Below, one piece after another: positions 1,504 to 57,093 of a stretch of 58,036 nucleotides of DNA (the first letter of the stretch is position 1; each line of letters opens with the position of its first letter). The notes beneath the pieces are model-generated. The model did no database searches. It worked only from the letters and a program-made list of their open reading frames with translations, and was not told where the DNA came from. The position numbers and the translations under genes are program-made. This DNA comes from an uncultured Methanosarcinales archaeon (GTDB lineage Archaea; Nanobdellota; Nanobdellia; Woesearchaeales; JAGVZT01): positions 1 to 58,036 of the forward strand of contig CAYQPU010000005.1 of NCBI GenBank assembly GCA_964419615.1. The letters are read 5' to 3'.

Positions 1504-1800
1504 TGAGGGGATAGGGACTTTCATAAACATTTAATTAATCGAACCAAAGCTTCCACAATGCATTTGATTGTGTCGTGGTTAATTTGTATTGATTATTCAC
1601 CACGTCAAGGGACTGCAAGTCCCTTATGTTTTGGTCAAACTTTTATTAAAAGTTTGATTTGAACCCTAGTAGGCACTAAGCCAATGGATATCTAACAATC
1701 ATCGGACCTTTAACGTCCTCATCACTCAAATTGTCTTGAGTCCATCCCGTCTAGCCTAAAACCATATAATGATTTTTTTTGGCCACTCCGGCATCCCCTC
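1504..1800 (-). tRNA. tRNA-Leu(CAA) with three introns: D-loop 21/22 (1751-1778), anticodon 37/38 (1690-1734), T-loop 59/60 (1518-1657)
   Basis: Spliced sequence GAGGGGATGCCGGAGTGGCCAA|ACGGGATGGACTCAAG|ATCCATTGGCTTAGTGCCTACTAGGGTTCAAA|TCCCTATCCCCTCA folds as a class II cloverleaf; each junction has a BHB-type motif. Confidence 0.92.
1518..1657 (-). ncRNA. 140-nt structured T-loop intron, homologous to the intron at 56969-57079
   Basis: Three hairpins plus conserved linkers (CAAAACAT, GA, ACACRATCRA) shared with the tRNA-Trp intron, with compensatory changes. Confidence 0.85.
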
Positions 1801-15392: not shown

Positions 15393-15419
15393 CAGACTAA
15401 GCCGCGGTCGCTTAGTCTG
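15393..15419. repeat. Inverted repeat between the tRNA-Ser upstream flank and its D-arm
   Basis: CAGACTAAGC / GCTTAGTCTG, perfect 10 bp. Confidence 0.7.
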
Positions 15420-15526
15420 GCCATAGCGGAGGATTGCTATCGGCTATATGATGATATGATTATCTTATATGGCCTTCAAAGATCCTCTGTGCCCTGCACA
15501 CATGAGTTCAAATCTCATCCGCGGCG
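15401..15526 (+). tRNA. tRNA-Ser(GCT) with a 37/38 intron (15440-15481)
   Basis: GCCGCGG/CCGCGGC acceptor, GAGGA/TCCTC anticodon stem, long variable arm, TTCAAAT T-loop. Confidence 0.93.
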
Positions 15527-56834: not shown

Positions 56835-56906
56835 GGGGACATAGCTTAATTGGCAGAGTGGCTGGCTCCAGACCAGCAGGTCCCAGTTCGAGGCTGGGTG
56901 TTCCCA
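56835..56906 (+). tRNA. tRNA-Trp(CCA) copy 1, intronless
   Basis: GGGGACA/TGTTCCC-A acceptor; GCTGG-CTCCAGA-CCAGC anticodon arm; CCCAG-TTCGAGG-CTGGG T-arm. Confidence 0.88.
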
Positions 56907-56908
56907 TA

Positions 56909-57093
56909 GGGGTTGTAGTTTAATTTGGCTAGAGCATTCGGCTCCAAACCGAAAGATCCCGGTTCAAAGCGAACTTTTAATAAAAGTTCGATCAAAACAT
57001 AAGGGGCTTTCAGCCCCTTGACGTGGCCTTAATAAAACAGGATTGCCACGACACGATCGATATTGAAGTTCTGTGAAAGTCCGGGCAACCTCA
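56909..57093 (+). tRNA. tRNA-Trp(CCA) copy 2 with a 111-nt T-loop 59/60 intron (56969-57079)
   Basis: GGGGTTG/CAACCTC-A acceptor; TTCGG-CTCCAAA-CCGAA anticodon arm; BHB TTCA/TGAA. Confidence 0.9.
56969..57079 (+). ncRNA. Structured T-loop intron homologous to 1518-1657
   Basis: Same three hairpins and linkers, with compensatory substitutions. Confidence 0.85.

Follow-up and report, generated by a model that had tools for sequence, protein, structure and literature searches.

Two T-loop introns of a Woesearchaeales archaeon probably belong to a young, modular family of hairpin-bearing introns in tRNA genes

Introduction

Two tRNA genes of unrelated identity, tRNA-Leu(CAA) and tRNA-Trp(CCA), carry similar multi-hairpin inserts at the same T-loop position (59/60) in a 58,036-nt stretch of DNA, hereafter the window, from an uncultured archaeon. 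The window is contig CAYQPU010000005.1 of assembly GCA_964419615.1, which is deposited as Methanosarcinales and placed by GTDB in the Woesearchaeales (Nanobdellota). An earlier note on this DNA described the shared hairpins, the linkers and the common TGAAAG end of the inserts, and proposed either a mobile element that targets the T-loop motif TTCAAA or a functional circular RNA hosted in tRNAs. The locus therefore raises the question of what these inserts are, how they could be removed, and how the same structure came to reside in two unrelated genes.

Our analysis points strongly to one answer. Both inserts are very probably introns bounded by a bulge-helix-bulge (BHB) splice motif, belonging to a young, modular and proliferating family that has recently been copied through tRNA genes.

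Results

Family size and intron positions

Coordinates, sequences, hairpins, linkers and TGAAAG ends of both inserts agreed with the earlier description (Table 1). ARAGORN identified the interrupted Trp gene as tRNA-Trp(CCA) once the intron was removed by hand, and both inserts lie at T-loop position 59/60 as had been proposed. The T-loop of the Leu gene runs GGTTCAAA, intron, TCCCTATCCCCTCA; that of the Trp gene runs GGTTCAAA, intron, TCCGGGCAACCTCA.

Relatives were sought with BLAST, with iterated nhmmer searches and with R1, a covariance model of the three hairpins, which scored the Leu and Trp introns at 96 and 103 bits (E about 1e-16). R1 matched 22 loci in the genome under study (G000; 1.48 Mb, 99% complete) and nine in a sister species of the same genus (G001), so that the further copies anticipated by the earlier note were indeed found, in unrelated host tRNAs. 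The family comprises about twenty full copies, with introns of 110-190 nt. Three other genera of the same taxonomic family gave 1-3 weak matches and the rest of the order four, with no R1 match in 52 of the 60 sampled relatives. The introns also resemble ones from metagenome-assembled genomes named as Woesearchaeota (L162). The three genera include the unpublished genome G006 and the tallies also contain G275 and G362; our conclusions are independent of all three.

Position 59/60 is a genuine site of the family, accounting for 14 of the 22 matches in G000, but the family is not the pair at one position that was first described. Copies also occupy D-loops (contigs C21, C20 and C26), position 37/38 (tRNA-Ser on C12 and a putative case on C22) and the RNase P RNA gene, between the RNase P helices P2 and P4. 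The 16S rRNA gene (G000 C1:7681-7840) is interrupted between GGATTAGAT and ACCC by a partial relative, which has hairpin 1, the linker and matching 3' segments in common with the family and differs in its inner hairpins. This range of sites contradicts a specific targeting of TTCAAA.

Introns at 59/60 extend beyond the family itself. By a regular-expression census, about 26 tRNA genes of G000 contain 59/60 introns of 25-191 nt that end in GAAAG before T (the reversed genome, as a control, yielded nine matches), and 17 of these roughly 26 introns match the census pattern for hairpin 1 with its linker. Only 10 tRNA genes of G000 score above Rfam's tRNA cut-off. One tRNA cluster (G000 C13:17372-19106) has a T-loop 59/60 intron in every gene, several of them 29-43 nt long and lacking hairpin 1.

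Splice-site geometry and folding

The canonical BHB of the anticodon arm has a 4-bp central helix formed from loop bases 32-35, with the cut after base 37. The T arm, like the anticodon arm, consists of a 5-bp stem and a 7-nt loop. In the 59/60 introns, T-loop bases 54-57 (UUCA or UUCG) pair with UGAA or CGAA of the intron to give a 4-bp central helix; A58, A59 and the first intron base form the 5' bulge, AG and U60 form the 3' bulge, and the T stem and an end-to-end helix, P1, serve as the outer helices of the predicted motif. Because the T arm has the stem and loop dimensions of the anticodon arm, the predicted cuts fall exactly at 59/60. By established BHB geometry and direct reading of the sequence, this position is the exact geometric twin of the canonical 37/38 site. 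The shared TGAAAG end is not a target-site signature but what such a splice motif needs, i.e., a complement of the T-loop (TGAA) followed by the AG of the 3' bulge.

Base identities follow the proposed pairing. Of 24 introns compared in G000 and G001, 19 belong to T-loops with A57, and 18 of these have T at intron base -6; the other five belong to T-loops with G57, and base -6 is C in three of them and T, allowing a G-U pair, in two. Helix P1 pairs the first ~9 nt of the intron with the segment just upstream of TGAA, and an intron's own 5' and 3' ends pair with a mean energy of -7.6 kcal/mol, compared to -5.2 kcal/mol for the ends of mismatched introns (permutation p < 2e-4). Hairpin 1 and P1 are mutually exclusive because both use the same 5' intron nucleotides. 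Hairpin 1 is real and covarying, as the earlier note held, but it is not the sole pairing of this segment.

Folding placed the T stem, central helix and bulges at the minimum energy or about 1-2.6 kcal/mol from it. For the Leu intron, the fold containing the T stem, the UUCA/UGAA helix and the bulges equals the minimum in energy (-41.2 kcal/mol), with the hairpin 1 and P1 folds isoenergetic. The minimum fold of the Trp intron uses the long-range P1/P2 pairings (-44.6 kcal/mol), and the BHB-constrained fold reaches -43.9 kcal/mol. Folds and covariation together contain the parts that define a BHB motif: two 3-nt bulges, a 4-bp helix and flanking helices. G000 has a single gene for the splicing endonuclease EndA, a 219-aa open reading frame (ORF) on contig C3 with one PF01974 match (101 bits); a single gene fits the DPANN alpha-type enzymes that have been tied to disrupted tRNA genes (PMC5829648).

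Conservation of the hairpins

The modules follow a common order, i.e., hairpin 1, CAAAA linker, hairpin 2, hairpin 3, often a fourth hairpin, and a 3' segment that pairs with the 5' end of the intron. The earlier claim that the stems are conserved and covarying was substantiated. An alignment of 23 copies, fitted to the covariance model and so favouring the structure somewhat, had 96.8% of cells paired and compensatory double changes in 16 of 22 pairs. None of 500 shuffles reached this level of pairing, and shifting the structure by 1-3 columns reduced pairing to 33-50%. This model-based alignment (A3) was used because MAFFT (A1) misaligned the copies with long hairpin-1 loops. Only seven of 43 unpaired core columns, chiefly in the CAAAA linker, are at least 90% conserved, and a constraint on folding fits such a pattern better than a sequence-specific function does.

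This bears on the proposal that the conserved core (hairpins 2 and 3 with the linker) is a functional RNA, e.g., protein-binding or regulatory, hosted by tRNAs and released as a stable circle. BHB introns are known to leave as circles, the core stems have been kept through compensatory change in 23 copies, sequence is conserved in the CAAAA linker and also in a part of the hairpin-3 loop (AAGAU), and the same core is found in RNase P RNA, where it is possibly not removed. Nevertheless, we regard this explanation as unlikely. Conserved unpaired columns are few, the core is essentially limited to one genus, sister species hold different modules at orthologous sites, and about twenty near-redundant copies would be unexpected for one functional RNA. 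Rfam 15 likewise matched the introns to no family, ribozymes, group I/II introns and C/D or H/ACA RNAs included, even at E ≤ 1, in a comparison that the earlier note had suggested (window at the gathering threshold; 13 loci at E-value thresholds to 1 and 0.1); tRNA and RNase P RNA were the only families found in the window and the 13 loci. K-turn, H/ACA and C/D motifs were considered for hairpins 1-3 and rejected, the required GA pairs, pocket or boxes being absent by eye. A spliced intron family shaped by the need to fold agrees better with these observations.

Recent gain and copying

The 59/60 intron of tRNA-Leu(CAA) is present in G000 and G001, whereas two other genera (G004 and G007) have an intact T-loop, TTCGAAT. 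The 37/38 intron is the only one that the tRNA-Leu(CAA) genes of these two genera have in common with those of G000 and G001, and it predates the three-hairpin family. The D-loop intron is likewise present in G000 and G001 and absent in G004 and G007.

Copying between genes is evident from the sister species. The T-loop introns of tRNA-Leu(CAA) and tRNA-Lys(CUU) in G001 are 92.7% identical over ~188 nt although their host tRNAs are unrelated, whereas identity is as low as 57% between the orthologous Lys introns of the two species. One intron must therefore have passed, by copying or conversion, from one gene to another, unrelated one since G000 and G001 diverged. At one orthologous tRNA site, G000 (C8) holds the full core, G001 a 78-nt variant and G004 an unrelated 59/60 intron; such differences in content indicate that some 59/60 sites are older than the modules now in them. 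Within the orthologous Leu intron, G001 has a ~50-nt two-hairpin module at an AAAA^G site in the 3' arm of hairpin 1 that G000 lacks, and this sub-module recurs at the same constant site in other copies (Table 1).

The features expected of a transposed, paralogous intron family are thus present: near-identical introns in unrelated tRNAs, presence and absence at orthologous sites (tRNA-Leu(CAA)), and occupation of several positions (59/60, D-loop and 37/38). Of the mobile, MITE-like (miniature inverted-repeat transposable element) intron suggested earlier, recent movement stands and the targeting of TTCAAA does not.

The copy in RNase P RNA

RNase P RNA genes of sister genomes have a short P3 (CAAAC-loop-GTTTG) of 13-19 nt. 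The G000 gene has ~130 additional nt 5' of P3, consisting of a forward module and an inverted partial module with hairpin 3 in common, and the insert also gives an antisense R1 match of 72.5 bits. Splicing by the T-loop rule was rejected for this copy, as it would delete the essential GAGGAAAG. The insert may have other splice boundaries, or the module may be tolerated as an enlarged P3.

A wider module of hairpin 1 and linker

Hairpin 1 and the linker are older than the full core of the family. A search for the pattern CTTTT-N(3-14)-AAAAG-N-T-Y-GA-H-CAAAA gave matches in 67 of 401 genomes from the phylum (17%), ~190 in total compared to ~6 for the backward pattern; G000 has the highest count (24). 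Most of 43 inspected instances, from 38 other genomes, form the 5' end of D-loop, 37/38 or T-loop introns, and others directly follow tRNA 3' ends or separate a complete tRNA gene from a duplicated fragment. Of the 43 instances, 21 have a T-arm motif at a distance of at most 130 nt, compared to two of 38 control windows.

Many genomes of the phylum have the module exactly between a complete tRNA and a duplicate fragment of that tRNA, either a 3' fragment starting from the T-loop or a 5' fragment reaching up to the D-loop (Table 1). This arrangement resembles a miniature integration scar. The intron modules also have a free-standing relative in G000, an intergenic array of repeats (C40:9240-9600); each of its units contains ATCAAACACCCCATNGCATG and then a hairpin-1-like stem, a CAAAA linker and a hairpin whose loop reads CTCACTT.

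Beyond the phylum, the pattern gave at least 138 matches in species-representative genomes, including methanogens, other DPANN groups and Clostridia. Four additional stem pairs, which the pattern does not impose, were present in 92 of 138 among the matches listed, compared to nine of 152 in viral contigs used as a negative control. A near-identical extended hairpin, (C)GCAAACTTTTT-GAA-AAAAGTTTGA(T/C)CAAAAAC, was observed in Methanosarcinales, Methanobacteria, anaerobic methanotrophic archaea of group ANME-1, Micrarchaeota and Clostridia/Ruminococcus, often in multiple copies or tandem arrays. The module in these other taxa had no Rfam match at E ≤ 0.1, the bacterial version gave no informative match in plasmid and phage collections, and a literature search with the hairpin motif sequence returned a primer as its sole match. 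CRISPR repeats and type III antitoxin arrays were considered for the methanogen tandems and rejected, given that the "spacers" are mutually identical and no gene is recurrently associated. We tentatively suggest that hairpin 1 and the CAAAA linker could be the trace left by a DNA module, as yet undescribed, that has tRNA genes as its targets or its sites of recombination.

Routes of spread

A related possibility is that the modules are non-autonomous DNA transposons, i.e., MITE-like or resembling palindrome-associated transposable elements (PATEs), moved by a transposase encoded elsewhere such as the IS200/IS605 Y1 enzyme, and that the introns are those insertions that happened to be spliceable. 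G000 does encode an intact IS200-type TnpA on C57 and a fragment on C2, whereas none was found in G001, which has fewer copies. The elements are made of hairpins and lack target duplications, the AAAA^G site is the same for every copy of the nested two-hairpin module, and hairpin 1 with the linker also occurs outside introns, in intergenic DNA and beside partial tRNA duplications in many genomes. However, the comparison with IS200/IS605 ends that the earlier note had envisaged yielded no match: the flanks of the C57 tnpA carry unrelated hairpins, BLAST and R1 found nothing there, and the ends resemble no module (best shared words of 14-16 nt, a chance-level length; R1 at most 11 bits). Whole introns have no common target or duplication, in contrast to the nested module with its constant site. 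TnpB fell below the cut-off, and clustering of ORFs within 2.5 kb of 120 hairpin loci recovered no recurrent protein other than the ubiquitous ATP-binding cassette (ABC) ATPases. On this evidence, a transposase-driven origin seems improbable, about as much so as a functional circle.

Least plausible is spread at the RNA level, by reverse splicing of excised introns into BHB-like sites of other RNAs and copying back into DNA: all full insertions do lie in transcribed structural RNAs (tRNA, RNase P and 16S) at BHB-like sites, but a search of the 99%-complete G000 found no reverse transcriptase domain, an intron-less T-loop is not an EndA substrate, and intergenic DNA contains hairpin 1 and the linker as free-standing copies.

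We therefore return to BHB introns of a young family copied between tRNA genes, for which the following sequence of events can be envisaged. The introns would be excised by the single EndA of the genome and the exons rejoined by an RNA ligase. Spread would occur at the DNA level, through copying or gene conversion between intron-bearing RNA genes combined with insertion of hairpin modules. BHB geometry would act as the filter, such that only spliceable insertions survive. The remaining hairpins would persist since an insert of this length has to fold back on itself, spare the folding of the tRNA and present the splice motif. Finally, the 5' module (hairpin 1 and linker) would be an older, phylum-wide element associated with tRNA genes.

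Several points weigh against this account. Splicing and circle formation are predictions from sequences and computed folds, and the mechanism of copying is one that we infer. The covariation counts are not independent events, because the copies are paralogs aligned to the model, although their contrast with the controls is nevertheless large. A pure folding constraint leaves the invariant CAAAA linker and a few loop bases unexplained in copies that have no P2 partner. Moreover, the RNase P copy is not spliceable in the manner of the T-loop copies without loss of GAGGAAAG.

Further features of the window

Besides the noted intron, the tRNA-Leu gene contains the D-loop and 37/38 introns, neither of which was mentioned in the earlier note. 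The 37/38 intron has a second UGAUGA-like element in addition to GUGAUGA, and it may be a putative methylation-guide RNA.

An intact, intron-less tRNA-Trp(CCA) precedes the interrupted copy. In the uncut window, ARAGORN and Rfam detected the intact gene and missed its interrupted neighbor. Orthologs of the intact gene (type 1) are present in G001 and G002. The interrupted gene (type 2) is similar to the usual, intron-less tRNA-Trp found in other families of the order (G028 and G046), and no ortholog of it was found in G001-G004 or G007; the syntenic site in G001 apparently holds the type 1 gene alone. The pair at 56835-57093 looks like a gene replacement caught midway. A weak partial match to the tRNA model (20 bits) at 15406-15520 (+) is possibly another interrupted tRNA gene.

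Table 1. Locations of the interrupted tRNA genes, their introns and related elements. Unprefixed positions refer to the window; other entries give genome and contig or locus.
Feature	Location	Strand	Details
tRNA-Leu(CAA)	1800-1504	-	four exons: 1800-1778, 1749-1734, 1689-1658, 1517-1504; boundaries set by aligning the G004 ortholog (no D-loop or T-loop intron)
Leu D-loop intron	~1777-1750	-	~28 nt, boundaries +/- a few A; outside the three-hairpin family
Leu 37/38 intron	1733-1690	-	canonical position; box-C-like GUGAUGA, assigned by eye only
Leu 59/60 intron	1657-1518	-	140 nt; family member; R1 96.1 bits
Leu 59/60 hairpin 1	1656-1636	-	
Leu 59/60 CAAAA linker	1635-1626	-	
Leu 59/60 hairpin 2	1625-1607	-	
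Leu 59/60 hairpin 3	1604-1574	-	
Leu 59/60 hairpin 4	1572-1554	-	
Leu 59/60 P1, 3' strand	1532-1524	-	
Leu 59/60 TGAA central-helix strand	1523-1520	-	
Leu 59/60 AG bulge	1519-1518	-	
tRNA-Trp(CCA), intact, intron-less	56835-56906	+	2 nt upstream of the interrupted copy; ARAGORN; Rfam 58.4 bits
tRNA-Trp(CCA), second copy	56909-57093	+	exon 1 56909-56968; exon 2 57080-57093
Trp 59/60 intron	56969-57079	+	111 nt; family member; R1 102.7 bits
Trp 59/60 hairpin 1	56970-56990	+	
Trp 59/60 linker	56991-57000	+	
Trp 59/60 hairpin 2	57001-57019	+	
Trp 59/60 hairpin 3	57022-57050	+	
Trp 59/60 P1, 3' strand	57066-57071	+	
Trp 59/60 TGAA	57074-57077	+	
Trp 59/60 AG bulge	57078-57079	+	
RNase P RNA gene with insert at P3	G000 C3:47755-47925		locus L036/L042
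IS200-type Y1 transposase gene	G000 C57:970-1407	-	intact, 145 aa
Second Y1 transposase copy	G000 C2:79974-80084		partial, at contig end
Two-hairpin sub-module copies	G000 C10:1705-1751, C20:19510-19557, C26:21775-21818, C37:10540-10585; G001 L098, L110, L112		
Duplicated 3' tRNA fragments beside module	L263, L265, L267, L273, L276, L280, L282, L284, L285, L259		from the T-loop
Duplicated 5' tRNA fragments beside module	L266, L268, L274		up to the D-loop
Extended hairpin	L129, L136, L144, L164, L210		plus about 100 more among the matches listed

Discussion

The hairpin introns are a real, non-random feature. They probably represent a variant of the intron transposition known from the Thermoproteales, here with a link, perhaps of greater interest, to a hairpin module that is widespread and accompanies tRNA genes. 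We know of no established route by which protein-spliced introns enter tRNA genes. The 5' module is tied to partial tRNA duplications across the whole phylum; if it does seed both spliceable insertions and replacement tRNA fragments, it would provide a long-sought route of archaeal intron gain. Because so few tRNA genes of a 99%-complete genome reach Rfam's cut-off, inferences of completeness or codon usage from the tRNAs of such DPANN archaea are unreliable unless this class of intron is modelled.

The closest precedent is found in the Thermoproteales, where sets of tRNA introns with similar sequences were read as large-scale transposition at the DNA level (Sugahara 2008; Fujishima et al. 2010 Mol Biol Evol 27:2233, cited through PMC4090602). 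As described there, that system shares with the present one introns that are very similar although their tRNAs are unrelated in identity, that lie at canonical and non-canonical sites (59/60 among them), that occur several to a gene and that were gained after species split, together with a mechanism thought to act on DNA (PMC4090602).

The differences are nonetheless considerable. The host here is a DPANN archaeon rather than a member of the Crenarchaeota, and its one EndA gene fits the alpha type instead of an (alpha-beta)2 enzyme. Whereas the tRNA introns known from the Thermoproteales are for the most part short and lack structure, those described here span 110-190 nt and have a modular, covarying multi-hairpin core. 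The present family also has copies in RNase P RNA and a partial relative in 16S rRNA, and its 5' module is common to intergenic copies and the boundaries of partial tRNA duplications throughout the phylum.

Palindromic repeats of the repetitive extragenic palindrome (REP) and MITE types and the PATEs of IS200/IS605 are likewise small, multi-copy, non-coding hairpin modules of mosaic build and partly intergenic location. The present family differs in lacking matching transposase ends and target-site duplications and in its strong association with tRNA genes, and most of its copies need to be spliced out of the RNA for the gene to work.

Disrupted tRNA genes with a broad-specificity EndA have been described in DPANN archaea, i.e., the epsilon2 enzyme of ARMAN-2 (PMC3239211) and L3-loop alpha4 enzymes (PMC5829648). 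These cases resemble ours in that standard software misses most tRNA genes, introns are non-canonical and EndA is encoded by a single gene; according to PMC5829648, the tRNA sets of DPANN archaea are still incomplete. Both papers, in their accessible parts, catalogue intron positions and enzyme types and describe no repeated, structured intron family. A literature search, itself non-exhaustive, found no published description of a structured, modular intron family in DPANN archaea.

A 2026 study of Asgard archaea, in the part accessible to us, reports repeated intron gains at BHB-competent sites, many missed by tRNAscan-SE, and gives no copying route. Our observations parallel its findings on both the sites and the missed introns. 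They differ in that copying between genes is directly visible here, in the near-identical Leu and Lys introns of the sister species. The family thus offers what the Thermoproteales and Asgard studies lacked, namely young, alignable and modular intron copies from which trees can be built; being young, long and modular, they let one read directly from sequence which sites were donors and which recipients, in what order events took place and how BHB geometry filtered the outcome.
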